A stretch of 56,564 nucleotides of DNA, filler included, from Dugesia japonica (lineage: Eukaryota): assembly GCA_001938525.1 (NCBI GenBank). It is 5 parts of 5 records of this genome, joined end to end, with 100 filler letters (N's around TTAATTAATTAA, not from the genome) between each part and the next. Parts side by side here need not be neighbours in the genome. Positions count along the whole stretch, not along the records: positions 1 to 11,060 come from MQRL01547408.1; 4 more parts are not named here. One strand, given 5' to 3'. A program made the position numbers and the translations under genes. Of the stretch, positions 3,199 to 53,270 are shown piece by piece. Position 1 is the first letter of the stretch. Every line of letters begins with the position of its first letter. The notes under the pieces are model-generated. The model searched no databases. It saw only the letters and a program-made list of their open reading frames with translations, and was not told the origin of the DNA.

Positions 3199-4174
3199 TT
3201 TTGTTAATTGAAGCTTTAGACAACCCATTTTGAATATCATTAATAATGTTTTTTTTTTTTTCATTATATTGATTATTAATGCGCTACATTTGTAAGTAAT
3301 ATCTTATGTAGAAACTAACAATCTGGTTCGTTGGACCCAAAAAATGAGGAGTTCATACATTCTGTGAGAGATGGAAAGTCCCCAGAATGACTCTGAAGAT
3401 GAACATAAGGAAGTCGTAAATGCTCGTTGCCAAGCTATGTATGAATGATAGACAAACACTAATGGAAAACTATTTTAAAAATTAATTGTTTTAATAATAA
3501 ATTTAAAATTAATTCTATTATCATTCTTTTAATTTGTTTTGTTTTAAATGAGTTGATTGACTTAAACGTAATTTGCAGGCTCTTAATTGAGACATAGAAA
3601 CATGTGCCCTGGATATTTCATCGGCTATTTACAAAGACTTTTTTGTTAGCACTGATCATCTATTTGGGTTTATTATTATGAGGATGATTTTAGATCGAAA
3701 AATTTTAATGTCGTAGTTATTTATTTAACCACATAATAGAACCATAATATTATTTAAATTTATAGCAAATAAGTTTAAAAACGTATGGAACGGTAACCTT
3801 TATTTAAGCTTCAATCAAAGAATGTTTTGTTTTCAAAGTATATTTAAGTTCTATATAATAAATTATTAAGTTGACCAATATGGAAAATTTAAATATCATT
3901 AAAATTCATTTTAACATTTTGNNNNNNNNNNNNNNNNNNNNNGGTTTTCAGAAAAACTTGAAAATATTTATTCATTTATTAAAAGAATAAGCAAATAATT
4001 TAGATGACATAAAACTGAATTTGTACAAATCAAATTAACGGGCTTTAGATGAAGCTCACTAGTATCTCCAATTCTGCCTTTTTTGATAAATAAATAACAG
4101 TTTTTAATAATATCTTTTACGTATTAGAAAGAAGGAATGAATTAACAACACGACACATAAAAGTTTATTTATAA

Positions 4175-4462
4175 CCATAAAAATGTTTGGGTCATTTTAT
4201 CAATAAGACGCATGTCAAGAGGCACTCATGCCCTAAACTTCAAAATACCATTCACGAGTCGATTTTCTCTCTCCTGTAAAGAACGAATGACTTCTGCGAA
4301 AGTCTCTAACTGCGCTTTCCATAATCGCTGCTAGGAATGTCAGAGCTCAGCTTCTCTTCGCAACTCGTGGCACCGTTTCTTATACATTTTATTTTTGGCC
4401 TTCTCGGCGGCAATTTGAGCTTACGAATTGCTCTTAGCAAACCGATATAGTTCCCAAGACAT
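4175..4462 (-). pseudogene. Small decayed orphan ORF (coiled-coil-like), possibly a Polinton accessory gene
   Basis: GC-richer patch reading MSWELYRFAKSNS*AQIAAEKAKNKMYKKRCHELRREAEL...RSLQERENRLVNGILKF with a few stops. Lies downstream of the capsid remnant on the same strand. Confidence 0.3.
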
Positions 4463-4749
4463 TTCTTGGTCATCGCTGTCTTTGCTTTGACGATTAATGG
4501 TGGTCGATTATGTTGTTCACTGGAAATAAAGATTCGGTTAATAATTATTCAATAATATTATGTAAAAGGTTATTTAACAGAAGAAACTAACAACGATATT
4601 ATGCGACGTTTGCCTCACCAAAACCTAAGTCTATGCCTGGATCTGGTCCACCATAAATGCTAATTTTGATCAGTAACTCGAACTTTTATGGAATTGATCA
4701 TTGAATTTAACTTTTATTTTGCATTAATATTTTTCAGTGTTTCGCTTAC

Positions 4750-5415
4750 TTCCCAGATGATGAGCAGCTAGTACTGAGGGTTCAACTCGTACACGTCTAA
4801 CCATTAATCTTGCATCTAGTAATACATATTTAGGTTCATTGGCTGGAGATTTCAAACAAATCTTAGAAGATGATCGTTTCAATCGAATATGAACATTGAC
4901 TCAGGAATAAGGTATTTTGGTTGATTCATGAAATGGAATTGCAAAGAACCACAAAGAGATAATTGTTTTGATTTTGCAATAGACTTTTTTCTATCTGCTT
5001 CTGTTCCATATCCAATTGCTGCAAGACATTTATTCTTACTATCACCATTATAATTTATTACAGATTCAATAAATGGTTTGTGAATATAAGATCCATTTCC
5101 ACCTTCAATTTTTAAATTATTAAACGAAAGAGTTACATCCTTCAAAAGTGTATGCAGCATATAGTTACTAGCAGCTGAATCATTCTTATCAGTCAAATCT
5201 TTACCATCATTATCAACTACCTTCACTTTAATATACAATAAAGTATCATTCAAATCCAAATATTCTGTTTGAGATCCATTTATGAAAAACTCTACATGGC
5301 TTTGCAATTCGGAAATTGAATTCATAGGAAAGATATCTTCGAAAGTATCAATTTCAATTACAGGTTGTGGAGATGGTCGATCAAAAATATATAATTCGGT
5401 TTTATCGCAAATCAT
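4750..5415 (-). pseudogene. Polinton/adintovirus major capsid protein (double jelly-roll, hexon-like), N-terminal half
   Basis: ELYIFDRPSPQ...VEFFINGSQTEYLDLNDTLLYIKVKVV...NYMLHTLLKDVTLSFN. After a frameshift near 4900 it continues VNVHIRLKRSS...YVLLDARLMVRRVRVEPSVLAAHHLG, matching adintovirus MCP motifs. 3' truncated. Confidence 0.85.
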
Positions 5416-5812
5416 TTTTCAAATATTGTTCTTTGTCCTCTCATTCGTTTGTTTATATGCGATGAGTGTGATTTTTTGCGTTTTCTATGAGTTGGCTTAC
5501 TTTTTGGCTGATTTGATAGCATATTAGTTATTTCAAATGATATTTTACTTGTTATACTTTGCGGTAATATGTTTCCTACTTTTAGGATCATACTGGTAAC
5601 TCCACTAAGTAATGATGACACTAGATTTCCAAGTTTCGCTAATGCATTAGATTTTAATGTTGATAGTATTTTTCCATTATTAGGTAGTACATCTTGAGCT
5701 GTTTTCATACCAAATGAACCAATTAGTAGGCAAAGCAAATCTACCTATATTTTGTAGCCAACCAGATCTATACTGTTTTCCAAGAAAGTAAGGCAGTTCT
5801 CCGCCTGTCTGA
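5412..5812 (-). pseudogene. Polinton/adintovirus small basic core-like protein preceding the MCP
   Basis: QTGGELPYFLGKQYRSGWLQNIGRFALP, a frameshift, then LIGSFGMKTAQDVL and a basic tail RKRKKSHSSHINKRMRGQRTIF. Its stop overlaps the MCP ATG (ATGA, 5412-5415). Confidence 0.7.
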
Positions 5813-5815
5813 CTA

Positions 5816-7143
5816 GCTATAATGACTCCAAGACCAAAGGACAGAGAAATATGTTATAACGAACTAAAAATTTGGAATAAAAGTAGAACAAGATATGTAC
5901 AACCTGTCACAAGAATAATGTCACCGATTGACTATATTCCAAATCAAATAAACTGTTCTAATATTTTAGGACCAATGTAAATAATGCCAAATGGAAAATG
6001 GATCAGATTTCCCGAAAGATCCCATTGGGGTCCCAAACCTCAGAAGTTTTCTTTACTCAGATTAAACGGTGGAGAAAGATTTGAATCTCTAAACGTAGCA
6101 GAAAATGGAATTTACAGCTCAGACAATTTAGCTAGAGCCCATGAACATATGCTCTTCCCAGTAAAAATAAATCAAATATTATCAAACATAGTACAGATAG
6201 CTAGCGGAACGTTATCTAATGGAAGACCTAATTGCGCTCTATTATTATCACCAGATCACTTTCAACAAGCAACTCACAAGGTCATGAAAAAGATGTGGGG
6301 AAAATTCATCATATTTGACCAAGCAATGGCAGAATTATTAGGAATTATTTTAATTATATCCATCGTGAGTGTAGTTATCACTCAAATTTTCGCGATTTTT
6401 GATATATACCGAAGAGAAAAACGAATAAATTGGAAATTAATGACAGGAATATTTCCATTCTGGGGAAAGATGATTGTACTAAATAGCCACACAAAAGATA
6501 TCCATCAAAAAAAGAAATTCCTCAAGAAAATAAGCAAAATACACGGGTCAGATCAAGAAATTGGAGCACAAATCAGACAACTATGCATCGAAAGAGACTC
6601 TAGAGGACAAAATAAAAAGTCATACTTAAAAGCACTACAAGATCAGTTACAAAATAAATGGAACGACAGTGCCAGTAGTGATAGCAATGAATCAGTAGGA
6701 AACACCCAATCAACAAGTTATTACAGAGAAGAAGTTGTACAAAAAGACAGAAAACATGAGACAAAAGCCAAAAGGAAATCAAAAATTAGCAAAGTTAAAA
6801 AATCAATCAAAGATATGTATCAAAGAAATGCACAAACCTATAATCTAGGAAATCCACAAGTACTCAATACAGGGGTAATAGGTAATGACGGATGATATTA
6901 TCCAATGGAAGATCCAACACAATTAAGACGAGTACCTAGACCATACGATTTTTCAAATCCACCACCAAACCCAAGTTGAACTATGCCAATGAATGCAGTA
7001 TTACCAGATCAAATAATATGGCAACCAATTAATTCACCAATGCCACATCAAATGGAACCAATAGTGCAGCTAAACATTATGAGGTCAAGAAGCTCCATGA
7101 TATTACAAGACAATACGCAACCACCGGTACGAAACCGACAATC
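5816..7143 (+). pseudogene. env: Chuvirus/herpes gB-like (class III) envelope glycoprotein C-terminal part plus in-frame K/S- and P/Q-rich extension
   Basis: One frame: EICYNELKIW..YVQPVTRIM..INCSNILGPM*..KWIRF..ENGIYSSDNLARAHEHMLFPVKINQILSNIVQIASG..MWGKFIIF, then a TM helix (LLGIILIISIVSVVITQIFAIF). ORFs 5984 and 6983 are in the same frame, broken only by point stops. Confidence 0.72.
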
Positions 7144-7257
7144 NNNNNNNNNNNNNNNNNNNNNNNNNNNNNNNNNNNNNNNNNNNNNNNNNNNNNNNNN
7201 NNNNNNNNNNNNNNNNNNNNNNNNNNNNNNNNNNNNNNNNNNNNNNNNNNNNNNNNG

Positions 7258-7500
7258 ATCGACACAGGAGCAAGTATATCGATGATACATCCAGATGCAC
7301 TTCCACCACAAGCACACAGACCAATGAAAGCGACGAAATTAAGGGTTAATAGTCTGGAGGGACAAGTCATCTACCCGCTCGGACAGATAAACTGCTCAAT
7401 TCAACGAGAAAACGCACCAAAAATTCGACACAAATTAGCGGTAATGGATAAATTAGCTTACAGTTGTATATTGGGATTGGATTTACTGCCAAAATTCTAG
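7258..7500 (+). CDS. Retropepsin aspartic protease domain #1
   Basis: IDTGASISMI catalytic motif immediately after the N gap, and a terminal CILGLDLL motif. Confidence 0.85.
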   Translation: MDTGASISMIHPDALPPQAHRPMKATKLRVNSLEGQVIYPLGQINCSIQRENAPKIRHKLAVMDKLAYSCILGLDLLPKF

Positions 7501-7592
7501 ATAATGACATAATTAACTTAAATCAACTAGGAATATTCAAGGAATCGAACGAAAATAATAAATCCCCAAAAGTTACTCAATAAGTTACACTT

Positions 7593-7700
7593 TGTGCAAT
7601 ATGCGGAGAAAAAGGACATAAAGCCTCACAATGTAAATTATCAAAACCTAAATGCCATTACTGCGGAAAATTCGGTCACATAGAAAAATTTGCATAACAA
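7593..7700 (+). pseudogene. Two CCHC zinc knuckles (nucleocapsid)
   Basis: CAICGEKGHKASQC and CHYCGKFGHIEK-(frameshift)-C. Confidence 0.85.
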
Positions 7701-7902
7701 AATCATCACGACGTTACAAGTGTGAAATAAGGGGTCATAAGGAAAATGAATGTTTCAGAAATACAGTTCCAAGTCAACTTTAGCCGGGAGAACAGGCTAA
7801 TAGAGGTAATTTCAATAATAAACGAATCAACCGAAACCATAACAAAAGGATTCGAGGGAGAAAAACACCAACGGCGGTCAAAATCATGATGGCTTAAAAG
7901 AA

Positions 7903-10900
7903 ATGCCACCACCAATGTCAAATTTAGCCGGAAAAAGGAGAATTTCATACATCAACAGAATACACGGAGATCCATTGGATAATCACGAGGATATCTACCA
8001 AATTCATTTAGAAGAATACGAAAATTCAAACGAAATACAAGCAAGCAATGAGATCAAAGAGAAAGTTTGTTACGCACTTAGTCCAGGCCGACCACGATTC
8101 GGCATTGATATAAAATTGAATGGAGAAAAAGTTAACGCACTTCTAGATACAGGATCAACACTGTCCATAATAAATAATAGCAGCTTATCCAATGAACAGC
8201 GAAAAGGGATACTTATCAGGGATCAAACAACTAAAACAATAGATGAAGTATCAGTCTATTTAATCGGAAAATTACCCTGTGAAGTATCTTATAAAGGAAA
8301 AATAGTACTACACCATATGACAGTAATGGATATAACAGAACACATATACTACCTCAACTATTAACAAACGGAATAATCGATTTATCAACGTTACATGTCA
8401 AAGGTAAAAAGAGAGGCCGGTACTCAAAAAACTATGAGGCTAGTAACTCCGAAAAAATGATTATACCAAGAAAAAGTCAAGTGTGCTATCTCGCAGACAC
8501 AAAGATTTCAGAAAGAGGAACAATTTTATTTGAACCATATGATGGGTTCTCACAGAAATATAAATTACCAGCAGCAGGAGAACTCGTAACAGTAAATGAT
8601 GACTGGAAAGTGCCGGTCAATGTAGTAAATTTCTCAAATAAAGATATCATAATTCATCCAAATTCAAGATTAGGAACATTGACACCCGTATTAAATTTTG
8701 CCCATCAAGAAGAAGGAAAAACTACAGAAGACGACTCGGAATCAAAGGGCATGGTAGAATTCCCTCCCATGGAAGAGGATTGTAAAAGTTATGTACCAGA
8801 AAGTTAACCAACAGAGGTAGACAGATCATTCCAAGTCAATTCCGAAACCATATTAGCGGAACAAAAGAAACAGCTACTAAATCTCTTGGAAGAGTATAGA
8901 GATATATTTGCGTGGACGGACGATGAATTATTAGAATGTGGCGTCACAATGCATACGATTCCGTTAATCNNNNNNNNNNNNNNNNNNNNNNNNNNNNNNN
9001 NNNNNNNNNNNNNNNNNNNGACCCAGTAAAATTAAAACCATGCAGAATTGCACAATCTCAGAAAGAAATTTGTGATGCAGAAATTAAGAAAATATTAGAC
9101 GCAAAATTAATTGAACCTAGCTAATCACCTTGGCAATTTCCAGTAGTATTAGTTAAAAAGAAAGATGAGTCAACACGTTTCTGTATCGATTACAGACAAT
9201 TAAATGCCAAAACAAAAAAAGACACCTATCCTTTGCCGGAAATAAACGAATTATTACAGTTGTTGTACAGAGCGATATTATATTCAACACTTAATCTAAT
9301 AAGCGGATATTGGCAATTAAAAATCAAACCAGAAGATAAGGAAAAGACAGCATTTACAGCAGGACGCGATTTTTATCAATTTATTCGAATGCCATTTGGT
9401 CTAACTGACGCACCAGCATCATTTCAGAGATGCATGAATTTTGTCACACATGGCATAGCACATTGTATGATATATATAGACGATCTATTAATATTCTCAA
9501 CATCATTTGAAGAACACATAAAGGATCTTCGAACATTCTTCATTAGACTTCGACACTGAAATTTAAAAGTCAAACCTACTAACTGCGATTGGGCCAAGAA
9601 CAAAGTCACGTTCTCAGGACATCAAATATCAGAGAAGAGTAGAGAACCAGACCAGAGGAATACAGAAAAAATAAAAGAATTTCCAGTGCCTAAATGTGTC
9701 AAAGCAATACAAAAATTTCTTGGATTATGCTGATATTACAGGAAACTTATTAAAGGTTATGCAACGATTGCAAAATCCATGCAAAATCTTGTAAAGCAAG
9801 ATACAGCCCTTATATGGGCAGATGAACAACCAAATTCATTCGAATCTCTCAGACATAAAAAAAACCACCAATGTTAGCTCAACCAAATTTTGAAAAACCA
9901 TTCTTACTTGCAACTGATGCAAGCAAATACGCAGCAGGAGCTGTATTAGGCCAGTATGATGATCAAGGGCGAGAACACGTTATAGCGTATTTCAGCAAAA
10001 CATTCCAAGGAGCTGAAAAAATTTACAGTACAACAGAAGGAGAAAAAAAGCAATTAAACATTTTAGATATCTTCTTCTCGGGCATGAAGTCATTATATTC
10101 TCAGATCATCAACCACTAACTATGATTGGCTAGAAATCATTACGAACTCTCAGAATTGCAAAATGGCCAATAAGTTTACAAAAATACATGCCAAAAATAA
10201 AATTCAGGAGCGGCAAAGCAACTTCTAATGCAGATTGTTTATCACGAGCCATATTTCCAGAACTTGTAAACGAACAAACGGAAGCTATCTGTTTCTTATT
10301 ATCAGAAGACATAGATTTTAAACAATTCAAGGAGGATCAGAGGGAAGACTTAGAAGCAAAAATTATTCAGAAATATCTAATGGCAAAGCAAAACGATGCA
10401 CTAAACTACGACCCAGAAATGAGAGAACACTTACTGAAAAGTGGATGTCGTTATACAAAGAAAAAGGATAGTTAATGGCACAGAATGGAGATAAAAAGCA
10501 ATATTTGTACCAAAATCGCACAGAGAACGAATTCTATAGCAATACCACAATGGAGTCCTCGAAGTACATATATCAGCAAGAAAAACAGAAGCCAAATTAA
10601 GACACAAATACTATTGGCCAAGAATCGCTCAAGATGTAAAGGATTGGATAGCACATTGTCAGATATGCGCTTCCAGAAGAGGAACAGGAGGTTCAGAAAA
10701 GGCATCATTAAAACCAATGCCAATACCAACCAAACCAATGTTAGATCATGGCGATGGACGTAGTCGGACCATTACCCGAAACTGTAGATGGAAACTCATA
10801 CATTCTGGTATGTATGGATTATCTGTCTAAATATCCTGAAGCATTCCCGATGAAAAATCAAAACGACACAACGATAGAAGAACTATTTGTAAAGGAAATT

Positions 10901-11060
10901 TTCAGCAAATATGGTACACCAAAGAAAACCCTAACTGATCAAGGCAGAAATTTTATGAGTGACATTTTTACAGAAGTCACTAGATGCTTCTAAATATTGA
11001 AATTAAGAACATCACCGTACCATCCACAGACAGACGTGCTAGCAGAAAGGTTTAACAGAA
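7903..11060 (+). mobile_element. pol: Ty3/gypsy pol (decayed): protease #2, dUTPase-like segment, RT, RNase H, integrase
   Basis: LNGEKVNALLDTGST (~8116-8160); VPVNVVNFSNKDIIIHPNSRLG; SPWQFPVVLVKKKD..FCIDYRQLN; RMPFGL..YIDDLLI; LATDASKYAAGAVLGQ; NADCLSR; YYWP..CQIC; MDVVGPLP..TDQGRNF..SPYHPQTD..ERFNR. PR-RT-RH-IN order is gypsy. Truncated at the scaffold end. Confidence 0.93.
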
Positions 11061-11160
11061 NNNNNNNNNNNNNNNNNNNNNNNNNNNNNNNNNNNNNNNN
11101 NNNNTTAATTAATTAANNNNNNNNNNNNNNNNNNNNNNNNNNNNNNNNNNNNNNNNNNNN
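11061..11160. other. Artificial scaffold-joining spacer
   Basis: 44N + TTAATTAATTAA (stops in all six frames) + 44N = 100 bp. Confidence 0.95.
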
Positions 11161-11949
11161 CGTATGAACAACCAATTTAAGAAGTAGATCAACTCAACAT
11201 TCGATATCCAGAATCAATATTCGATGTTCAGACATTCTAATGGTTTGATTCCGTGCCATCTGAACATTTGAACATTTTGAAATATTTATCTTTTGAGCAT
11301 GATATTATATATATTTCATTTTATTTATTCTATTTTGACAATATTTATTTTTTTCAATCATGCTGATTTTATAAATTTTGTATATATATATTTTGAACAT
11401 TTTTGAGTTTTATTCTTATTATTTTATTGATTGATTAAACTGTTTTGAGTTATATATTACAGATGTTTAATAATGTATCAACATACTACCATCTAAATTC
11501 AAAAATCCTCAAATAATCATTTCAAATTTCAAGTATAATTTTAAATTACGATCTATAAAATGCTTTATTGATTAGAAATACCCAACAAATTTGGAATCAA
11601 AAGAAGTGAAAATTATTAAAATCAAGCTGGTATTCAACCTTTGTTAAAATCTTCCGTGTTTTAGTCAGTTTATATCAGATATTGTAGAAATTCTACTAAA
11701 ATCTTTTATCAAAGTTGATTAATTTAATTATCTTAAGTTTGGTACTGCAATCTCTTATCAAAGTTCTGATAATATGAAATCATTTCCTTAACGATACGAG
11801 TTGAAAGAAACTCAAGAAAAGGTATTCGGATGAAAGAAACCGAATAAGTATTTTTAAGCATTCAAGTTAAAAGAAACTGAAAGATTAGTCATTGGAAGAG
11901 AAATAATATATAAATTGCGAAATAGAAATATCCATAAAAGGGGAGAAAA

Positions 11950-13100
11950 TAATTCACCATTAAGAAACTTAGCANAAAACGGTCAATGGGGACCACGCAA
12001 CTCTTTAAACATATAGCCTATCGAATTTTATGCAGAAAAACCAGAAGAATTTGTTGAATATTTAATGCATGCATATTTGTGCTACAGCATGTGGAAGCGC
12101 AGAAGCAGATTTGATTAAACGATTACCCATTTATTTGAAAGAATACGTACTGAAGTGTTATAAAAATATGAACAATAAACCGAATAATTGAGAATATCTT
12201 AAAAAAAAGTTAAGAAAAAGGAAAATAGTTCCAAGGGAATTAGAAAGAACTTGCATACAAAAATTTAGAGATAAAACACAAGCATAAAAAAACTGTGGGG
12301 AATAATATATCCATGAATTGACCAATTTAGCAGATCAAGCTTTTGATAAAGGAGATAATATCGGTCACATAATATAATTTCAATTTTTAAACGGGACACA
12401 TAATTATATTCAAGAAGCATTAATAGCAGCAGAATATAAAAACTTAAAATAATTAACATCTAAAGCAAGAAGAATCGAGACAAATAATTTAGCATAATGA
12501 GAAAACTAGTTAAATATACACAATTGAAAAAAACATTGAAAAAACCTCGTCGAACGAAATGAGAAAATCATATCCAAATCCTCAAAATAGTAGAAAAGAT
12601 CAAGATCTAATATTTCCATCGGATTATTACTTACCGAATTAAAGTAGAAACGCGAGAAATTATAACAACTATAATAGGAATGCAATTCCAGAAAGAAATT
12701 ATAAAAGAAATCTAAGCCCTAGAAGAAATTTCAATAACTATAACAGAAATACAAGCCCAGAAAAGAATTTTAACTGAAATACCAGCACATCAAGGATATA
12801 TAATCGAGATGACAGAAATTTCATGATGATGATAATCATAAGAGTCCGAGCCCATATTTTTAAAGGGAAGAAAGAGACAAATTAAACTACAAAAGAAAAA
12901 TAAAAGGTTACAATTGTAATAAATTTGGACATATGGCAATGGTATGTAGAAAGAAGCCAAGTGACTGAAGTAATTTAAAAAAAAAAAGTTGTATCATTCA
13001 GTTCAAAAACAAGAGAAACTAATGCTATTGAAATAATAAGCAGTGAAGGTTATGAAAACATGATAATTGACCTAGAAGATATGAAAATATATTCGAATAC
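11950..13100 (+). pseudogene. gag: Decayed LTR-retrotransposon gag
   Basis: PIEFYAEKPEEFVEYL capsid-like start, RN(L/T)SP repeats near 12700, and knuckle (G)YNCNKFGHMAMVCRKK at ~12907-12960. Strong A-rich coding-strand skew. Confidence 0.6.
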
Positions 13101-14434
13101 CAACGAATGATGGAAAGACAAGAAGAAAAAAATGAATATCAGATAGGTGTGTGAACCAGTAAAAGTGGATTTGGATGCGATCGACGAAAGAAAACAAGAA
13201 ATATTGATTGAAAATTTCAAATTAGAAATAACGAAAGAAAGAACTAACGAACTAATATTTTTACAATATCTAAAGGATATCAGGAATTCCTATTAATTTT
13301 CAAAATATCAAACCAATAACAATTACTCTAGCAAAACATTGAAGTAAGATAGAAATATCAGAGAATTTTGATGCAATAGACAAAATATTTCAAATGTATA
13401 GGGATTATGTAAAGAAAAACAAAAATTGGCAAAAGCTTTTAAATTTCAAAGTGACAGTAGAACAAGACGATTTTTCTTTGACAGAGTAGAAATAAATTAT
13501 GCATGAATGTATGTAAACAAATAAATTATATAAAACAGTGAAAAGATATTGGCCAGTATTGCTACAAGCAGAAGATGTGATACAATTGTCATTATACAGA
13601 ACTTAACGAAAATAAAGCTCTAATGAAATATGAAACCATTCCAGGTAATATTAACATCATAAAAGCAACAATAATGAAGTATGTACTACAAATACTAACT
13701 AATGACAAAACAACAATCAATGAAAGAAATTTTAAATCTAATGGTACTAGCAGATAAAGTGAAGGAAGAAAGATTGAATTAACAAAGTAATGAAAATATG
13801 AAATCCAACAATAATCTACATGTTATAAAAAATAAAAATGATGATCCAATCATTGTTGCAGTAAATCGGTGTAAAGTAGCAGAGTCAGAAATTGAACCTA
13901 AGAAATAACATAGATATGTTGGGCTAGAATGAGAAAACAGCATAGAGAAATATAGCAGAATGAAATATGATCTGTCTCAAAATAAGTACCAGAAATAGAA
14001 TCAATTATTTAAGAAGAGAAATGATTAAAATAATGGGTTAAATACAATTATATAATTAAAAGAAATAAATAGGGGCGAATGAATCAATAATAAATAGAAA
14101 TTGTTGGACCTAAAGAAAGAGAAAATAACCGGGAGAAAATGATAATTAGAACGATGAATTATATATTTTATTTATAATATATGAATAATATAAAAGTAAA
14201 AATATATTAAAATGTGTGATATCAGAACGAAAGTAATATATATTAGAAAGGTATAAGAATATTATATTAATTTATTATAATATATTAATTGTGCACGATA
14301 ATATTATCAGGAATATTATTATGAAAATCGGAAACGATTATATTATTATTTAAAGTTTGTAAAAATAATNNNNNNNNNNNNNNNNNNNNNNNNNNNNNNN
14401 NNNNNNNNNNNNNNNNNNNNNNNNNNNNNNNNNN

Positions 14435-14494
<60 letters not shown>
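14435..14494. repeat. (TAT)n microsatellite
   Basis: About 20 perfect units adjoining a gap. Confidence 0.95.
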
Positions 14495-14858
14495 GTGTTT
14501 TGATGATAGAAATAGTCTAATCAGAATTTTGTTTATTTATTAATTAAAATACAGAAAACGTAGCCAATAAAGTATAATGAGAAATCATCACGAAGCCTAA
14601 TTTTTTTTACTGTCACAACATAAAAGCAAACCATTTCTTCAACGTAACGTGTCATGTGATAAAAAATGAATTTGTTGTATTAATCATAGGCGTTTATCTC
14701 AATAGCTGGATGAAAATCAAGCACCAAAACAGAGTTCAAAACCGAATTGACAGCAATCATCAAATAACCAAGTGAATACACTTCATAAACTAAAATTAAT
14801 ATTTTCAACATACTTTTATACATAGAAAATAAGTAACGCCATTTAAAATAAAACTTTA

Positions 14859-14885
14859 TTGTTATATATTTCGACGGATCAACCG
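14859..14885 (-). ncRNA. Second hammerhead copy (3' half visible; CTGATGA half falls in the N gap)
   Basis: Reverse complement reads CGGTTGATCCGTCGAAATATATAACAA. Confidence 0.5.
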
Positions 14886-15444
14886 NNNNNNNNNNNNNNN
14901 NNNNNNNNNNNNNNNNNNNNTTCAGTCCGTATTATTCAAACAAAGATTAATCCGATTATACTGAATATAAGACGGCTATAATTCTTAATTAAGAAGAAAT
15001 ATAAAGTTGGAAAAAAGAAGAAGAAATTATATTGTCAAGAATTTGACAATGGTGAGATCAGCTCTGTATGAAGTAAGCAATGATTTTGGATTTAATGTGT
15101 ATTAATATGGCTATTTTCTTGTCTAATAATTCAATTCATTATAAAATTGTATCACAGAATAAAAAACTTTTAAATCTTAGGTAATTATTTGGTATTTATA
15201 AGTTTGATGTTAGAAATACTATTTTAAATTTTAGCAATATTAATTTAAAAACGTCTTTGATTTTACAGGTAGCAGTAATAAAATATTATTATATAAATTA
15301 ATTTTTATTGAAAAATTGTTTAAAAATTTTCAAAATTAAAAATTATTTTTAAAAATTAAGAACTATAGCCGACTTATATTTAGTATAATTGCATTAATCT
15401 TTGTTTGAATAATACGGACTGAATAAACTCATTTTTTTTCATTT

Positions 15445-15485
15445 TTGTCTGATGATGACGATTGATCCGTCGAAATATATAACAA
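15445..15485 (+). ncRNA. Minimal type I hammerhead ribozyme
   Basis: TTGT-CTGATGA-T-GACG(ATTGATC)CGTC-GAAA-TATA-TA-ACAA: complete core, stem II GACG/CGTC, palindromic minimal stem III, AUA cleavage triplet, stem I TTGT/ACAA. Confidence 0.75.
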
Positions 15486-16205
15486 TATAGTTTTATCCTA
15501 AATGGCGTTACTTATCTTTTATTATTTTTGCATATTTTATAAATAAGTTCAGAATATCAAATTTGCTAAATAAGTTCAAAATGACTACCAGCCACCATCT
15601 GATATTATAGTAACTTTAATCAGTGTAGATGTTTCAACTTTATTTAATCAGTTTTAATACTCGATTTTATAGTTCAATATCAATTTAAAATTTATACTTT
15701 ATTATATTTTAATCATCATCAAGCCCATTTCAATGAACTTATTATCAAGGAAGTTGAAATAGTAAGCAGATAAATCAGCATGACACCACTAATCTGATTG
15801 GTCAAATTCAACACCCCTGCTGATCGATATAGTGATTTTTGATCTGATTAACTATTGATTTCGGATGTGATTGATTTATTAAAAATTTTTGATCGAATCA
15901 AAATCGAAAATTATTTTTATTTTTGCTTAAATTCATGGGAAAATTTTGTGGAAATTTTAAATTTTGTTTTAATTTTTTAAAACTTTTTTTATGAGCAAGT
16001 GCACATTTGGGTGCAATGGGTTTGGTACTATTGTGTTGATGTACAGAGTACACAGCATGCACAACACGCAGACAAAGAAAATGCCATGCAAACATAACAT
16101 CACAGAAAATTTTCAAATCAAGCAATCCTCAAAGTCAATCCAAAATCAGTCAGGACAGTTCAATTCAAATCAATTCATCATCAAACCTCGAGCAGATCTC
16201 CAAAC

Positions 16206-16300
16206 ATTCATATTGATATTTTTTATCTAATGATTTGACTCTAATTCATATTGATACTGTTTATCTAATGATTTGACTCTAATTCATATTGATATTGTTT
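16206..16300. repeat. 38-bp tandem repeat, ~2.5 copies
   Basis: Unit ATTCATATTGATA(T/C)T(T/G)TTTATCTAATGATTTGACTCTA. Confidence 0.85.
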
Positions 16301-18819
16301 TAGTTTTATTTTGCGGTGTATTATATTAATTTGATTCAGTTTATTTTGACTGTGTATTTTAGATTTAAATTTTATAAAAGTAATTTTCAATCTACTATAT
16401 ATTTTGAGAGTAGTTTTTAATTTTGGTTAAAAGAAAATGAAAATTAATAGAAATTAATACGGTGTATTAAAAGAAATATTATTTTTATAGAATTTTATTT
16501 ATAATGTAATTAATTTAAAAAAATAATTAATCAAAAAAGGTAAATTTGTATAAAAAATATTAAGTTTTATGTATGTAATGTAAGTGTATGTGATTGGCAA
16601 ATTCAGTATAAATACTGAACTAGTTCGTTGTAAATTCAGACATCAAATTACTGAACACTCCAACCTCTTCGGGCGGCAGCAGTTCGGATAATTAAAATTT
16701 AGCGCTTTGTACTATACTTGAATACATAAAAATATAAAGTTTTATCAAAAGGTTGTTATTCATTTATTTATATAAGAAACTCTACAATATATAACTATAT
16801 TTATAGCATTGAATATTGATTATATAATATTGTATTTACAAATACATCAACACTCATCAAATCACAAAGCAATTATTTACTACGAACCATAAAATCTTTT
16901 GTTGATTTAGAATACCCAACAATTGTGTGAGTAAGTAAATATTGAAAAAAACGAAATTTGAGACAGATTGTGTGTTTANGTGTGTGGATTATTGATTTTT
17001 GGGTTTTAAGGGTAGACTTGACCGTGGCCTCAAAATCAGTCTATACATTGCAAAGGTAATTATGGTCTAAAATTCGCCTAAGGGTTACAGACTTAGGTCA
17101 GCATGACACCACAGTGATGAGTTATCGCGCCCTTTTGTTTACAAGAATGTGATGTAATAAACTTTGTTGAATTCGGGTCACTTTAGGTTTTGTGCAAAGA
17201 TTGGGTGTCAGAGTAGGTGATGGTGTTGAGTTTGGGTTGATATTTTGGATTATTGATTTATTTTTTTAGGGCTGAATGTTAAAGGTTTGTAAGTAGTGTA
17301 AGTAGATGAAGAAACTTTTGTTGAGGTTTGCTTGACTTTTTTGAAATAGATGGAAGAACGGGAAATCCGAAAAGTATGGTTTTGATTTTTCAAGAGTGTT
17401 GCAAAAGTGAGTTATAAGTATATTTTAAGGGTTTGTGTTAGTTTAAAAATTATTAGGCATGTGATTTTTGGATGATTGTATGTTGCACATGTGTTGCGCT
17501 TGTGTTGCATCTCTATTGCAGTAATAAATATTTTTACATATTTTTTATTTACTACTTATATAAAGAAACATTTATTTACAATAATAAATATTTATTGTTA
17601 CAACATTTATATTTGTGTTCTTCATCTTCAGTTTTTTGTTCCTCTGGAGAATTTTTCATTGGTTCCAGGTATTTTTCTGTTTATTCTAGAAAAAAAATCC
17701 GTTTAAACTATCACGATGTATAATGAACAGAGCAGAAATCTTAAAGATTCATTACAATCTGGATCCGTTTATGTCTCCGATGACAGAAATCTCAAACAAT
17801 GAGATCTTATTATATTGATACAAGTTGAAGTGAAAAATGCAAGGACTTCATGCATCAATAGAAATATAATTTCCGGATAGCTTAGTTGTTTTGCGCAAAG
17901 AAGAATGCAAAGAAAAATTGAAATTCAATTCAAAGGAATTAGAAAATATGAAATTTCGTATGAAAAATCTTGTAAAGTTTTTTAAGCTTAATCCACCAAC
18001 AGATGCAATTGAAATTTATAAAGAAGAGAAGAAAAGAATTACAAACAGATTAAACTTTGATTGTGCATATAAAAGCCCAGAAATAATTGATAGCACAAAA
18101 GCTAATATCAAAGTGCAACCTTTATCGATAGCTTTAGGAAAACAAAGACAATGGTAAGTTATTAGAAATGAAAACAATGGTAATTTTATTATTTATTTTA
18201 AAAAAAGTATTAATTATTAGTTTAGATCNGGTCTGTCAAACAAAATTTGCAAAGGATCATGCAGTTTTATGGTTATAAAAAACATTTCTTTTCCTGTGAT
18301 GTCATTTGTTGTTATTTTAATGTAATGTTATTTATCAATAAATCTTATTTATCATAATCTTGTTTTTGAACTTTAAATTTTTAATTTAAACTTAAAACTT
18401 TATTACCTTGCTTAATTGATGCAGATAATTTAAATGTTGTATCAGGGTAATTTAATTCAATATTTTTAACCATTTGTTCTATTACCAAATCTAAATTCAT
18501 GATAATAGAACAATAATTTTTTTATTTTGTTTGTTTATATAACATGCTCATGACATACATAAAGCATTAACATGTCATATATAAAAATAATATTTTATTA
18601 TAAAAATAACAATAATGATAATAAATAACATATTTTTTTATAACATATCACATATATGACCCGAAAAATGGCCGGTTTAGCGTCCAGATATACATACACA
18701 GATTTCTTCTTTTCTAAAATATAAAGAATTAATTAATGTGATAAAAAAATAAATAAATACCACTTATTTTTCAGATGTTCTTCCTGTGACTAGATTTTTG
18801 GTTTTATGCGAAAAAGATT

Positions 18820-24442: not shown

Positions 24443-24770
24443 TAACGTTGTTTTTTAAATCATAATAAACAGTATTGTCCACATGTTGTTGTAAATGGAT
24501 CTTGATAACGAATTTTGTTGTATACAATTGGTTTTAATAATTTCGATAAGTGTGACACCAACATTGATGGATAATAAAATCCTAATGGTTTAAATACAAG
24601 TATTTCAGCCAGTTTATTGTAAACAGCTGTCCAATGTTCTCCGGGTAGATTCGATGTATGAGTATTGACAATTAAGGCACTGTTTACTGAAATATTATTT
24701 GGAAGTTTATTAACGCATAATCACCTAATCATGCTGATCCAAGCTTCATTGATGCAATCCGATAAATTTG
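24443..24770 (-). pseudogene. Adenain (adenovirus-type cysteine protease) of a Polinton
   Basis: ALIVNTHTSNLPGEHWTAVY...VFKPLG...YQDPFTTTCGQYCLL; catalytic His, Gln and Cys motifs present. Confidence 0.88.
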
Positions 24771-24869
24771 AATAGTACTATTTAAATAAAATCATTAAAA
24801 TAACAACATTTACTTCATAACATGTACCAATTACACAACAAATTGTTTACACCAATACTGTAAAGAACT

Positions 24870-25200
24870 GATAATTATCCTTTAAATCTTTTACTAGTAT
24901 TACATAATCACAACTCCATTCTTTTCTTTAAACTTTCGATCGATTTCCAATACAAACTGTTGTTCATCAATTTTTTGTAATTTTTCTCAAGCTCAGTATT
25001 ACATTCTGCTCTTAATGAAGTTCTTGTTGCAATGTACGTTTCGAATATACATGCTTCAGTAAATTCTACCGACTCATGAACCACTTTAACTTCAACTCCT
25101 AATATTAAGTACATTTGTAGACGTTTACAGTGTAATACATAATTTACCTTAGCGTAATGAGTTTACATTAGCTTTCTTTACGTTACTGCCTGATGCGCTT
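24870..25200 (-). pseudogene. polB: Second pPolB fragment (palm/fingers)
   Basis: KVNYVLHCKRLQMYLILGVEVKVVH...LRAECNTELEKNYKKLMNNSLY. Confidence 0.85.
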
Positions 25201-25239
25201 CGATGTTCTGCTGCTACTGGTGGAGCCTTAAAATAATCT

Positions 25240-25490
25240 CGAAACAATGTTTTAATTGGCAATAATCATATATCAAATCTGCTTGGAGAAAACTGGATAG
25301 CTGTTTAAAATAAATTTGCTCAAATACTAGTATTTTATCCATGAGCATTTTATTATCCATCAATGTTGGTGTCACACTTATCAAAATTATCAAAACCAAT
25401 TGTTTACAACAGGATTCATTATCAACATCTATTTACAAAAACTTGTAGACAACGCTGCTTATTATGGTAAACCAACAAAGCAACATAAAG
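25240..25490 (+). pseudogene. Inverted, more decayed second adenain copy
   Basis: Clear reverse-complement similarity to 24443-24700 (shared TTTTATTATCCATCAATGTTGGTGTCACACTTATC). GENW replaces GEHW, and there are stops. Confidence 0.8.
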
Positions 25491-29539: not shown

Positions 29540-30420
29540 ATAAATTACTTCTTTTGCATATTCTAAAATAGTAAAACTTATATATGGAAATATATTATAT
29601 TTTAATTTTGTTTGTCTTAAATGAATTGCTGCTGTTTGAGCTTATCCTGTTTCACTGCATGTAAATATTTTGCTAGATCTAAAGTTTATTTTAGAAGCAA
29701 ACTTTTGATAATCTTCGTCAGTTCCAACTATTTCTACTTTACATCTTTTTCTTATATCTTCTAATGTCTTTCCATAAAATGCATTGTTAAGTAATTTAAA
29801 GAAATAATCTCCAAAAACATCATTATTTCCTTTTGATATATTTCTTTGGTTAATATTAAATTCAATATAATCTTTAAACCAAGGTTTTGTTGGCATTTTA
29901 TATTTACTATGAATTATTTTTATTTTCATTCCTAAAGATAAATACAAATCTAAAGTACTTCCCAAAACAATATAATTTTGTTTATCAAATTGATTTAAAG
30001 TTAATTTAATATTTGTCTAATAATTCTCTGAAAAATAAATGATTATCATAATCTGTAGCATTATGAAAATAAAAAGGTATAAATAAATCTCTAATTGATT
30101 TATCTTCTAAATTACCAATTTTATGAGCATATCCTCTCAAATTTCCATTAAAATGATCATGATCAATAACTAGATTTTCAGTTATATCTTTATTACAATA
30201 TCTACATTTTTGATTTGTAAATTTAGGATGGTTTGTTCCTCTATAAAATTCAATTAATTTATTTACTTTTACATCAATTAATTTATTATTAATTTCTTCT
30301 AAAAATTCAAAGAATTGTTCATGAATGGTTTCTTCACAAAATACTTTATATTCATTTTGAGTTAAATGCTGATATTTACTTTTGATGTAAATTCCAAGAG
30401 ATAATGGTTTTTTTATTTAT
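29540..30420 (-). pseudogene. polB: Third pPolB fragment (divergent family), internally deleted
   Basis: CRYCNK..IDHDHFNGNLRGYAH, then LYLSLGMKIKIIH..PWFKDYIEFN..FFKLLNNAFYGKTLEDIRKR. Confidence 0.88.
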
Positions 30421-41929: not shown

Positions 41930-43245
41930 TACTGGTTTTTTATTTTCCACTTTTGGGATCCTCGTGTGACATTAGACAGAGTGCACATGTATCGCATTTA
42001 CTCCTTGACAACATATCAGCATTTGTATGAAGCGATCCTTTTCTATATTCCAATTTTATATCTAAACTACTCAAATAATTAATCCAGGTTTGAAACTGTG
42101 ATGTNNNNNNNNNNNNNNNNNNNNNNNNNNNNNNNNNNNNNNNNNNNNNNNNNNNNNNNNNNNNNNNNNNNNNNNNNNNNNNNNNNNNNNNNNNNNNNNN
42201 NNNNNNNNNNNNNNNGAGAAATTCTTTCCGCGTAGTGCAATATCCTTTCTCATGACTCGTCTCTTCTTGGATCTTCATTTTCTATTATGCTCTCAGAAAA
42301 GATCTCTTCATTCTCATCATCATCCTCTTCTAGAATGGCATGTATTTATTTGGAGCAACTCTATACTTTTGTTTGTTTTCCACTTTTAAAAATATATCTT
42401 TTCTCTTTTAGTCTTCGTTTGTTATTGTTCGAATAACATTCTTCTGCTCTGTGATCTGGTTATTTACATCTACCGCATACAATTTTTGAGCATAATTTTC
42501 TGATGTGACCAATCTTACAACACCGAAAACATTTTAGAGGCTTCTTATCTGGACAATTTCTACGTAAATGTCTTTTCTTGTGGCAAGTCCAGCATTCCAC
42601 TTGTCAAGTTTTTGGACACTCTCTTTTTGTGTACCCATAACTATGGCATGTCCAACACTGTGCTTCTGTTCTTTTCGTAACTCCTCTCCACATGTTACTC
42701 CGCGTAAATCTTTACAACGTTAATAAGTTTTTTCTTTATATTTTTTCAACTAGTGATAGTGTTTCTTTTATATCTTCTACTTTCTCAAATTTCCGCACGA
42801 TTATCTCTTCTTCTGATTTTTACTGTTTGCACAAATTATTAGCATTTTTTTAACAAGAGACTTTCTTTTGTCAGCTCTCCATTTGCTAAACATTTATTGA
42901 CTAAATNCTCCACCTTTTTAAAAAAAAACACTTCAAGTTTTTCATCACCACGTCGATAGCTTACAAAGTTCTGCAAATATTTTTTTTAATCTCTTTTCTC
43001 TTGAAAGCTAATCGCAATCTTTCTTGATATCCATCCGCTTTCTTCAATGTTTTCACATATGCCTCTATTTATTTTTCATCACGCATTCATGTTATCAAGC
43101 GCCCCTTGTCTGTCTTAATAACGATGTTCTTCGCCTCGGTGTATATTTCACACAATTTAATAAACTTTTCTAGATCATCGCCTTTGCAAAATAACTTTGA
43201 CAACAATCTCTCTGTGATCGCATTGGTGTTTCCCGCTTCCACCAT
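41930..43245 (-). mobile_element. Gypsy deletion derivative: gag with four zinc knuckles joined to RNase H end
   Basis: MVEAGNTNAITERLLSKLFCKGDDLEKFI; knuckles CWTCHSYGY..EC, CWTCHKKRH..NC, CFRCCKIGH..LC and CGRCK*PDH..EC; then EKGYCTTRKEFL..WINYLSSLDIKLEYRKG..NADMLSR. Confidence 0.85.
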
Positions 43246-43559
43246 GTTAGATAAACTTTGAAGGACTTAATGAATAATTAATGTCAAAACTCGTTTCCTT
43301 AAAAGATTTATTCACAAAACAAAAACTATAAATATAAATTTGTTTTTTTCAAAAAAATTAAAAAATTTATATTCGTAACGGAAATAATCAAATATCAGTA
43401 TTTTGTAAAATATTTTTTTAAAAATTTTAATAATGTAAAATCTTAAAAATACACTCCAATCCTAAAATCTATTTTTCCCAAATGGTTTCTTAAATCTTTC
43501 CCTCGTCTTGTCTATTCAATGTTACCAAATACACATCTTTAGTACATTGTTCTATCATT

Positions 43560-44760
43560 CATAAAATTTATTTTGTCTTTTTTAACGCCTTGTAAAGGTC
43601 AATGACTTTTTATTCGAAATGAAAAAAACTTCTTTGTTTCTTCAGATCTTTCTTCCCTACAATAATAACTATCTGACCATCATGTTGATTCACGCGTTGA
43701 CACTGTATTAGCTTTGGTTTTCTGACATAACAAATAACTCTTAATAACCTTTGTTCTCTCCACCAAGCCATTTCCCTTTTTAAATAATTCCAGGGTTTTT
43801 TTATTCCTGTGGAATATAACTGATAGTGCATTTCTCTGATCGTCTCCTTCCTCATCTCTTAAGAAATTTCATCTTTTACATACAATACTTCACTCTTTCT
43901 TATTAACAACTAATATCATCTTCTCTAATTCCATTCAGCTTCTTCGTCTTTAATTATGTTTTCTTTGCCTCTTCTTGAATCATTTAACATTGAATACACG
44001 ACTTTAATTTTAGCCTATTCAACAAATCAGCATTGATAAAGTAGACAACTTTACGATATTTCAAACTTATGTCTAAGCTACTTAAAAAGTTTATCCACGT
44101 TTGAAACTGTGCCGCCATCGGTATTTTTGTATTCAACATACATGTAATAGCATTATGATTTTTCCTTAAAACAAATATATTGTAATACAAGTAATGTTTA
44201 AAGTGTATTCTGAAATAATAGACCGCCAGCAATTCTTTCCTAATAGTATAATATACATTTTTGTCTTTAAACACAGAATGAAAATCATATGCAATCACTT
44301 TTCCCCCTTTTTATTTATATGTGACAACACCGCTCAAATTGGTTTAAACCTTGCGTCCGTATCCAGAATGAACGTTTTCTCCAAATCTGGAAAACCTAAA
44401 ATTGGGGTAGATGTTATAGCCATCTTTGATACTTTAAATATTTCTCTCAATTTTACTGACCATACTAATTTGGAGTTTCAGGGACCACTACAGAATTGCT
44501 CCAATTATTTGATCTTCTATGCTTATTCTTTGATAAACTTCCTGTAGTCGTTGCAAATGCCTAAAATACTACGAGGCCTCTTAACGTATTTAGGTTTTCC
44601 GTACAACTTAATCGTTTCTATCTTAGTTTATTTGTCTTTACAACTTTTCCTTTTGAAAAAAGGACGTTTTTCTGAATTAATTCGTAATCATGCTTGCAAA
44701 GTTTTTGTCAACATCTTCTCAATCACTTCATAGCGTTCATCTTTTCGAAAATTATAATTG
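43560..44760 (-). pseudogene. pol: Gypsy pol remnant (RT connection, RNase H, integrase start)
   Basis: LRSILGICNDYRKFIK, PILGFPDLEKTFILDTDA, TIRKELLAVYY..HFKHYL, WINFLSSLDI, NADLLNR. Confidence 0.85.
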
Positions 44761-51032: not shown

Positions 51033-52212
51033 AAAAAAATTCATTTTTTATGCGACTTAGAGATTCCAAACTAAATATTCGAATATATTCATGTTTTTAT
51101 TGATTATGCTGCATGGTTAATGTTTAATTCGATCAAATAGGTTAAAGATTTATGAAATAAATATCACAAAATATACAAGTTAATTATTTAAAATTTCATT
51201 TAAATAAGAAAAAGCTTCGATTAAAATAAAATTTATTTGTAAAAAGGTTCAAATTTTCGACAATAATCTTCTTCAGAAACATGTTGGCTTTTTGATATAT
51301 TCAATACAATAGATCTTTGTTACTCAACTCTTTAAATTTTATCGAAATTTTATCGGTTTAATTTTTTTTATTTTAATTAAGGATTTTAGTTTTTATTTTT
51401 AAATCAACTCAAAAAATTTCAAAAAAATTTTTTTATTAATACAGAAAAGTCTTTTAGATATTTTAGATATATTATACTTAGAATTTTTTAATTTAGAATT
51501 TTTTGAATTATTTTTTGAAAATTTTTTTAAATTTTATTTTGTTTTTTTATTAATAATTTATGTTATTTTAAATAAATTTTATTATTTTATAAATTTCTTT
51601 TTTGAAATTCATTCAAAAATGAACTAGTTTTACATAGAATTATAAAAGTAATTTTTTTTGAACCTGAAATTTTTAAGTTTCTTTCAAATCCATATTAGGA
51701 CAACTAATTAATATTATTTCGTTTTTTATATTTTTTATATATAAATATATTTATTTTAAACATATTATTTATAGATATTGATATAAACTTTTTTTTATTT
51801 TTTAATCATTAATTATTAATTAATTATTTTAACTTAAATACAATATTTTAGAGTATATCTTGATGAAAATTGCATTAGCATGTTAATCAATATTCGAATT
51901 TTATCTTTTAAAACTGGTAGTTGTTTTAATTGATACAGATTTGGCGCTAAATTTAACATATGATTTATATTAAACCAAAATTATTTCTATAAACTTTATT
52001 TTTAGAGATTTTAAATGTTAACAGTTACAAAGACAACTAAGAATAGGTTAATGCTTACAGATGGTGAGTTTGAATATTACTTGAACTCTAAAACGCCGAC
52101 TAGAATGTACTGGGTTTGCACGAAATAACTTTGTATTTATTGATGAATAAAAGTTAAATTCTTAATTGTTGTTCTTCTGACCTTTTATTTATTTGATCTA
52201 ATATATTATTAT

Positions 52213-53038
52213 AAGATTTTATGTGAAAAGTTTTTATGTGAAAATTTATTATGTGAAAAGTTTTTATGTAAAAAGATTTTATGTAAAAAGATTTTATGTG
52301 AAAAGATTTTATNNNNNNNNNNNNNNNNNNNNNNNNNNNNNNNNNNNNNNNNNNNNNNNNNNNNNNNNNNNNNNNNNNNNNNNNNNNNNNNNNNNNNNNN
52401 NNNNNNNNNNNTTTTATGTAAAAAGATTTTATGTAAAAAGATTTTATGTGAAAAGATTTTATGTGAAAAGTTATTATGTGAAAAGATTTTATGTGAAAAG
52501 TTATTATGTGAAAAGTTTTTATATGAAAAGTTTTTATGTGAAAAGTTATTATGTGAAAATTTATTATGTGAAAAGTTATTATGTGAAAAGTTATTATGTG
52601 AAAAGATTTTACGTGAAAAGTTATTATGTGAAAAGTTTTTATATGAAAAGTTTTTATGTGAAAAGATTTTATGTGAAAAGTTATTATGTGAAAAGATTTT
52701 ATGTGAAAAGATTTTATGTGAAAAGATTTTATGTGAAAAGATTTTATGTGAAAAGATTTTATGTGAAAAGTTATTATGTGAAAATTTATTATGTGAAAAG
52801 TTTTTATGTGAAAAGTTATTATGTGAAAAGATTTTATGTAAAAAGATTTTATGTGAAAAGATTTTATGTGAAAAGTTATTATGTGAAAAGATTTTATGTA
52901 AAAAGATTTTATGTAAAAAGATTTTATGTGAAAAGATTTTATGTGAAAAGTTATTATGTGAAAAGATTTTATGTGAAAAGTTATTATGTGAAAATTTATT
53001 ATGTGAAAAGTTATTAGGTGAAATGTCTGGGTACCATA
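52213..53038. repeat. 15-bp minisatellite (AAAAG(A/T)T(T/A)TTATGTG)n, probably internal to a non-autonomous DNA transposon
   Basis: About 47 visible units plus a gap. Terminates in GTGAAATGTCTGGGTACC. Confidence 0.93.
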
Positions 53039-53270
53039 TTTTTCATTAATTAAATTTATTTTTTAATAAATAACGTAAAATTTAGAAATACATTTCAAAA
53101 AATACATTTTTGAAGAAAATCAGAAACTTAATAATTTATACATTACAAAGTAAAATTATAAATTTATTATNNNNNNNNNNNNNNNNNNNNNNNNNNNNNN
53201 NNNNNNNNNNNNNNNNNNNNTTATAAATTTAAAAATCACGAATTTATGAACATTCATAAATTAATGAATA

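Follow-up and report, generated by a model that had tools for sequence, protein, structure and literature searches.

A decayed Ty3/gypsy copy in Dugesia japonica carries a chuvirus/gB-type envelope fragment ahead of two proteases and pol

The stretch of Dugesia japonica DNA analysed here (the window, 56,564 nucleotides, five parts of five records of assembly GCA_001938525.1 joined end to end) contains, at positions 5816 to 11060 of its first record, part of a long terminal repeat (LTR) retroelement of the Ty3/gypsy group. We are confident, with some doubt left, that it is a decayed copy, truncated at the 5' side, of a high-copy element in which an envelope glycoprotein (env) of the herpesvirus gB/chuvirus type lies ahead of two proteases and of the reverse transcriptase (RT), RNase H (RH) and integrase (IN) domains. 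The element is likely a gag-env-pro-pol element resembling the Burro elements of planarians. When intact, it would be translated as a single polyprotein threaded through the membrane, and env would likely be excised from it.

The env reading frame ran from 5816 to the assembly gap at 7144, as an earlier note on this DNA had described, and was interrupted by only three stops, at 5978, 6893 and 6977. The alternative frames over 5816-7143 contained 38 and 29 stops, and 1000 shuffled sequences averaged 32.5 stops, the lowest count being 16. The tail alone (6512-7141) contained 2 stops where the other frames contained 13 and 15 (shuffle minimum 5), and this scarcity of stops implied that the tail is coding as well. 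The motifs that had been cited for the frame, such as CYNEL and HMLFP, were present in the translation. A transmembrane helix was located at residues 177-195 (Kyte-Doolittle mean of 2.84 over 19 residues at residue 177), and the stop-poor linker rich in K/S and P/Q was also borne out.

Residues 10-232 of the env frame matched the Pfam family PF24664 (Monjiviricetes_fusion) at positions 393-611 of 653, with an E value of 6.8e-27. Judged by this similarity, 5816-6511 is predicted to encode the C-terminal third of a chuvirus/gB-type (class III) fusogen. A search of 1.84 billion representatives gave 180 env matches at E values up to 0.001, the best 150 of which were listed, and 67 of the listed relatives were aligned (alignment A1). 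The window fragment matched the profile of this alignment with an hhalign probability of 99.8 over 220 columns. One unaltered relative of 748 residues, P0009, is 38% identical to the fragment, and its fold was predicted with a mean pLDDT of 82. In Foldseek, all PDB matches listed for this model were herpesvirus gB, the top one being that of herpes simplex virus (E 2e-13, TM-scores near 0.3-0.4). Against a viral library, the glycoprotein of Tacheng tick virus 4 came first, followed by those of chu-like viruses (E 2e-41). The class III assignment is that of the predicted fold of P0009, extended to the window fragment by homology. The gB/chuvirus identity proposed earlier was thus upheld by the Pfam match, the profile alignment and the modelled fold of a relative. 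Other searches contributed less. The PDB sequence search with the window fragment alone gave chance matches only, and of the 32 rows of a PDB profile search with env, 30 were herpes gB, though the E values were 0.03-0.8. Word-indexed protein searches, for longer relatives of the fragment and with the env of relative P0153, came back blank, which was uninformative because such relatives exist in the larger search. The G proteins of chuviruses (Monjiviricetes) and herpesvirus gB belong to the same Pfam family and share the fold. However, the chuvirus G is a stand-alone ORF of about 650 residues, unlike the env within polyproteins of the window type. The stand-alone chuvirus-type glycoproteins were 19-28% identical to the window sequence, while most polyprotein relatives were 30-49% identical. 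A chuvirus-derived env is also cited for mosquito BEL/Pao elements (PMC13524379).

Downstream of the gap, the Pfam scan established the order env-PR1-2xCCHC-PR2-RT-RH-IN in the window copy, where PR1 and PR2 are retropepsins and the CCHC pair are zinc knuckles of nucleocapsid (NC) type (Table 1). The order PR-RT-RNase H-integrase typical of Ty3/gypsy (Metaviridae) pol extended along 8090-11060. The earlier note had read this region as protease-NC-pol; a retropepsin and the knuckles do follow the gap, but the second retropepsin had been overlooked. The distance from env to the first protease was about 319 residues, and that in six relatives ranged from 128 to 461. From PR1 onward the domains lay as pieces in shifting frames with in-frame stops, so the copy has decayed. 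The earlier suggestion of a single polyprotein was therefore confirmed in part. The env frame is open save for the three stops and intact relatives have a single ORF, but the window copy does not stay in one frame past PR1, and the claim of one polyprotein rests on the relatives.

Whether the two sides of the 7144-7256 gap belong together was judged in two ways. Contigs from public sequencing runs of the host (genomic runs X1, X2 and X4, and one RNA run) were compared with the window. A 464-nt contig of X2 spanned 7140 to 7257 with 120 letters between and flanks of 144 and 200. This number is a multiple of three, so the length fits an env frame running on into PR1. No direct repeat and no second copy of 3950-11060 was found in the window. 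Second, env and RT had the same nearest relative, P0153, a single-ORF env-PR-RT-RH-IN polyprotein of 4,099 residues. Its env was 49% identical over 229 residues (32-39% for others) and its RT 55% identical (46-48% for others). P0153 was the sister of the window copy in both trees, with support of 100/100 for env (7 rows) and 95/96 for RT (14 rows). The RT tree, which the earlier note had asked for, drew on a scan of metagenome contigs that gave 21 RT loci. Seven with an RT match of at least 200 columns entered it and the other 14 were dropped; an env match was found at none of the 21. These observations support the assignment of env and pol on both sides of the gap to the same element.

The features absent or decayed in the window copy were examined in its relatives. 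We scanned 15 env relatives, chosen among the 24 best matches, for domains. A retropepsin followed env in 11, three of which had RT as well, and RT preceded env in none; the remaining four ended inside or just past env. All three longer cluster members were single ORFs with env-PR-RT-RH-IN (4,099, 3,003 and 4,844 residues), and env and pol shared one ORF in six relatives. The CCHC knuckles of gag lay upstream of env in 4 of 16 relatives, and P0016 had a Retrotrans_gag match at its start, below the cut-off. The ORF of P0153 showed no gag, and its contig is barely longer than the ORF. A hydrophobic, signal-like stretch preceded the first conserved env cysteine in all 11 relatives that include the start of env (11-residue mean of 2.15-3.42), 130-1,350 residues into the polyprotein. 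A Bcl-2 match before env in P0009 (E 1e-3) was below the cut-off; this Bcl-2-like region is homologous to residues 369-462 of P0153 (E 1.5e-5), and was found by homology also in P0004 and P0019. P0157 contained an ankyrin domain. Between env and RT, the six RT-bearing relatives carried 1, 2, 5, 2, 1 and 1 protease motifs, with seven in total in P0157, so the possession of two proteases is a trait of the lineage. In other relatives, C2H2 fingers and ankyrin lay between the tandem proteases. A protease tree of 29 rows, built in quick mode, did not separate PR1 from PR2. Nematode NERVs are also said to have a continuous gag-env-pro-pol ORF.

The ORFs of P0153 (2450-4099), P0157 (3300-4844), P0006, P0008 and P0155 ran on for 350-1,500 residues past the integrase. 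These extensions contained signal-like or transmembrane stretches and secreted-looking domains, an unannotated membrane cargo, with extra proteases in P0006 and P0157. P0008 (HBK71150.1), an env-PR-RT-RH-IN polyprotein, is filed as a hypothetical protein of a Flavobacteriaceae metagenome-assembled genome, and is likely eukaryotic contamination of the bin.

The earlier note had also taken the element to be env-first, and this did not hold. Both ends of the element are absent from the window copy. Contigs of other copies carried loose ends before 5815 (27 in X1, 12 in X4, none among those listed for X2), which indicates truncation of the window copy at that point, next to a Polinton-like neighbour. 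Because the 5' end is cut and gag markers precede env in relatives, the env-first appearance is most likely an effect of truncation. The family itself is abundant, since each genomic run placed 9,182-16,476 contigs on the element, mostly 90-99% alike and covering 30 of 30 bins. In the RNA run 396 reads were placed, with none at 99% identity or above and 13 at 95-99%, representing at most transcripts of relatives and not of the window copy.

The earlier note did not know this architecture to be described, but a paper of 2019 already contains it. In Burro/GYPSM1, the giant gypsy-like elements of dugesiid planarians described there by Arkhipova and Yushenova (2019, PMC6431247, citing Jurka 2007 and Grohme 2018), an env with homology to mononegavirus glycoproteins sits between gag and PR-RT-RH-IN, all in frame within a single giant ORF. 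These elements are over 25-30 kb in length, have long LTRs, and carry a BCL2-like domain immediately ahead of env and a dUTPase-like domain between PR and RT. Decayed Burro copies with stops and frameshifts were described there for D. japonica. BURRO1 levels go up under smedwi-2 RNAi (PMC8532177). Like Burro, the window element has env ahead of pol, a domain that occupies the dUTPase-like position between PR and RT, a very high copy number and decayed copies, and its relatives have BCL2-like and ankyrin domains. In contrast, the Burro text places CCHC only in the N-terminal gag and leaves multiple proteases unmentioned, whereas the window copy has two knuckles between two proteases. Chary and Hayashi (eLife 2026, PMC13524379) surveyed gB-type GAG-ENV-POL Ty3/gypsy 'errantiviruses' in Nematoda, Bryozoa and Platyhelminthes, including six elements of S. 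mediterranea with up to 215 copies, and reported that the GAG-ENV-POL elements are not monophyletic. Their gB-type env is upstream of pol, as in the window element (from PF24664, the bridging contig and the congruent trees), and the ectodomain is flanked by a signal peptide or transmembrane segment and a transmembrane segment. On visual inspection of the unaligned sequences, short motifs of P0153 recur in two S. mediterranea env rows of the supplement. Their set comprises intact elements only, and the window copy, with stops and frame changes throughout, falls outside its intact-ORF rule. Single-ORF translation and protease number are not discussed in the text consulted, and 'protease' occurs once in the main text. 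The same paper cites nematode NERVs (Sacco et al. 2022, J Gen Virol 103:1739) as having a flipped env/pol order. Given the Burro hallmarks of the relatives, the element likely works like Burro.

How the intact polyprotein might be processed can be outlined from these arrangements. The hydrophobic stretch before env would be an internal signal, cut by the host signal peptidase, so that env threads into the lumen of the endoplasmic reticulum while gag and the accessory domains stay in the cytosol. The env transmembrane helix would act as a stop-transfer segment and send PR-RT-IN back to the cytosol, where the retropepsins may sever pol from the env tail and then cleave the remainder. This proposal of signal and stop-transfer segments follows the general topology of polyproteins. 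If no frameshift intervenes, equal quantities of gag, env and pol would result, which is not the case in canonical retroviruses. Proteolytic release of env, as suggested in the earlier note, seems plausible. The window copy cannot make such a polyprotein, because gag and two-thirds of env are missing and what is left is interrupted by stops and shifts of frame.

Several points weigh against our interpretation. Every processing step derives from the sequences of relatives and from general polyprotein topology. The gag, LTRs, primer-binding site and polypurine tract of the window copy are out of view, lost to the Polinton-like tract at the 5' side and to the scaffold end at the 3' side. Only the one X2 contig bridged the gap at the 31-letter bar (two X1 contigs had a 20-letter side), and genomic run X4 had no bridging contig. 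The 120 bridging letters may include stops; continuity was judged by length only, and is frame-compatible in that sense. The RT tree is small, at 14 rows. CCHC knuckles after env were found in none of 16 relatives and, among these sequences, only in the window copy. A direct Pfam scan of the stretch before env in P0153 gave no Bcl-2 match. The dUTPase likeness of 8445-8804 is weak: the top PDB sequence match was a dUTPase at E 0.43, the domain had no Pfam match, and neither Pfam nor Atlas returned a dUTPase. The likeness to Burro, which we consider likely, rests on described features rather than on a direct comparison with the Burro1-4 sequences.

The position of the knuckles after env, between two proteases, is the only residual oddity, and it bears on the strongest alternative. 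In the canonical gag-pol junction, PR-RT comes directly after NC, and this order is present in the window copy. The element might be a recombinant, in which template switching joined env-PR1 of a gag-env-pro-pol element to NC-PR2-pol of a close env-less relative, the chimera being either amplified or limited to few copies. The window knuckles are similar to those in the gag of P0010 (38% over 50 residues), PR1 is nearest to P0008 and PR2 to P0155/P0153 (in an unresolved tree), and some contigs start at 7509-7512 with an unplaced 5' part. However, env and RT have a common sister in P0153, and other relatives also hold varied modules between tandem proteases. Contig depth over 7230-8194 was comparable in magnitude to that over RT, suggesting that PR1-CCHC-PR2 is a family trait. 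Among the loose ends listed 5' of the knuckles (1,337 more were unlisted), there was no many-contig breakpoint like that at 5815. We regard recombination as unlikely; it concerns origin only and is compatible with the proposed mechanism of env release.

Much less probable is an element that truly begins with env (LTR-env-PR1-NC-PR2-pol) and whose CCHC pair is what remains of gag. It would explain why the sole gag-type feature visible in the window copy lies after env, and ENV-GAG-POL elements with a short GAG have been published from oribatid mites (PMC13524379). However, those mite elements have an F-type env rather than a gB-type one (PMC13524379 supplement), the roughly 30 codons between PR1 and the knuckles hold no capsid-sized domain, gag markers lie upstream of env in relatives, and the 5' end of the window copy is a truncation. 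A misjoin or nested insertion, with env as the 3' ORF of a different element and an LTR hidden in the gap, might be expected of a draft assembly with 40 N-runs, artificial spacers and repeat-rich surroundings, but is very unlikely and the least probable of all given the bridging contig, the shared nearest relative on both sides and the steady AT skew (+0.22 to +0.32 over 6001-11000).

Table 1. Features of the window copy and its immediate surroundings
Feature	Position	Strand	Evidence
Polinton/Maverick-like double-jelly-roll capsid fragment, neighbour outside the element	4879..5418	-	Atlas
env fragment: membrane-proximal ectodomain, transmembrane helix, start of tail; 5'-truncated at 5815; one stop (5978)	5816..6511	+	PF24664; 49% to P0153; hhalign 99.8
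env transmembrane helix	6344..6400	+	Kyte-Doolittle
Coding cytosolic tail/linker, K/S-rich then P/Q-rich; stops 6893, 6977	6512..7143	+	Stop counts
Assembly gap, 113 N; bridged in another copy by 120 letters (7140 to 7257)	7144..7256	.	Run X2 contig
Retropepsin 1 (PR1), DTG intact, N-terminus within gap	7258..7497	+	PF13975 E 1.6e-4 (below curated cut-off); 36% to single protease of P0008
Two CCHC zinc knuckles between proteases, frame differs from PR1	7590..7691	+	PF00098 E 3.2e-8
Spacer and retropepsin 2 (PR2 about 8090-8360; DTG at about 8146)	7843..8364	+	PF00077 E 1.8e-4; aligns to RT-proximal protease of P0153, P0155
Beta-rich domain between PR and RT, at Burro dUTPase-like position	8445..8804	+	Homologous in 6/6 RT-bearing relatives
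Reverse transcriptase (YIDD), three in-frame stops	9020..9859	+	PF00078 E 2.2e-25; 55% to P0153
RNase H, split over two frames	9862..10250	+	PF17919 E 3.3e-20
Integrase zinc-binding domain and core, two frames, ended by scaffold end	10501..11060	+	PF17921 E 6e-14; PF00665 E 5.3e-11
Artificial scaffold spacer (44 N, 12-base palindrome, 44 N), removes 3' end of element	11061..11160	.	Identical spacer 4x in window

A decayed Polinton/Maverick-like tract on the minus strand (4150-5815) reaches the junction with the env fragment. Its capsid-like ORF had no Pfam match; in Atlas, it matched Preplasmiviricota clusters at 0.96-0.97 and Capsid_N at 0.95, and the recognition of 1962 was below the bar of 2300. 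A 110-residue ORF of the tract (5412-5744) was without a Pfam match. The 5815/5816 junction lies within both elements, so a deletion or a join made in assembly seems a better reading than an insertion with termini. On the other side, the identical 100-base spacer at 11061, 25914, 37884 and 46952 joins unrelated scaffolds, so neighbourhoods across it are meaningless. A decayed gag-like sequence at 12075-12479 on the plus strand (28% to the gag region of P0013, E 3e-5; CCHC-like motif at about 12905) lies on the next scaffold past the spacer, and hence is unlinked to the env-pol element. Elsewhere in the window we noted another decayed gypsy fragment on the minus strand (41967-44627; RT/RNase H at 44005-44627, zinc knuckles at 42490-42711) and a second Polinton-like remnant, also on the minus strand (29642-30416), with a protein-primed DNA polymerase B (PF03175, E 1e-5) and an endonuclease VII (PF02945, E 8e-5). 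A 15-nt tandem array open in several frames (52144-53062) and two inverted-repeat pairs resembling the ends of miniature inverted-repeat or other DNA transposons (14822-15522 and 24461-25466) were also seen. The window is AT-rich (17-42% GC per kb), which agrees with the figure of over 70% A/T for S. mediterranea (PMC11410931) without being diagnostic of a dugesiid host.

With the architecture in print since 2019, the window adds one decayed copy to a known kind. A literature search on multiple or tandem proteases in LTR elements surfaced PMC6431247 alone, and protease multiplication and knuckles after env were not found in print, although the figures, Grohme 2018 and Sacco 2022 may already show multiple proteases. 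We put forward, as a tentative idea that is more doubtful than not, that the gag-env-pro-pol giants constitute a lineage in which tandem retropepsins have expanded into arrays (1-5 between env and RT, up to seven per polyprotein) that alternate with swappable modules. On this view, the high-copy family of this host would have shifted its nucleocapsid knuckles, or a duplicate of them, to the cytosolic side of env, where they sit between two proteases. If so, the tandem proteases could pair within one chain, as tethered dimers, and act on a membrane-anchored polyprotein before any capsid has assembled, and the knuckles after env could couple RNA capture to the env tail. The metagenome-derived polyproteins of 2,600-4,800 residues represent a diverse lineage. 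The putative internal signal, conserved ahead of env in 11 of 11, offers a topology model, open to testing, of how gag, env and pol come from a single ORF. The multiplication of proteases and the post-env knuckles may merit a survey in long-read genomes.

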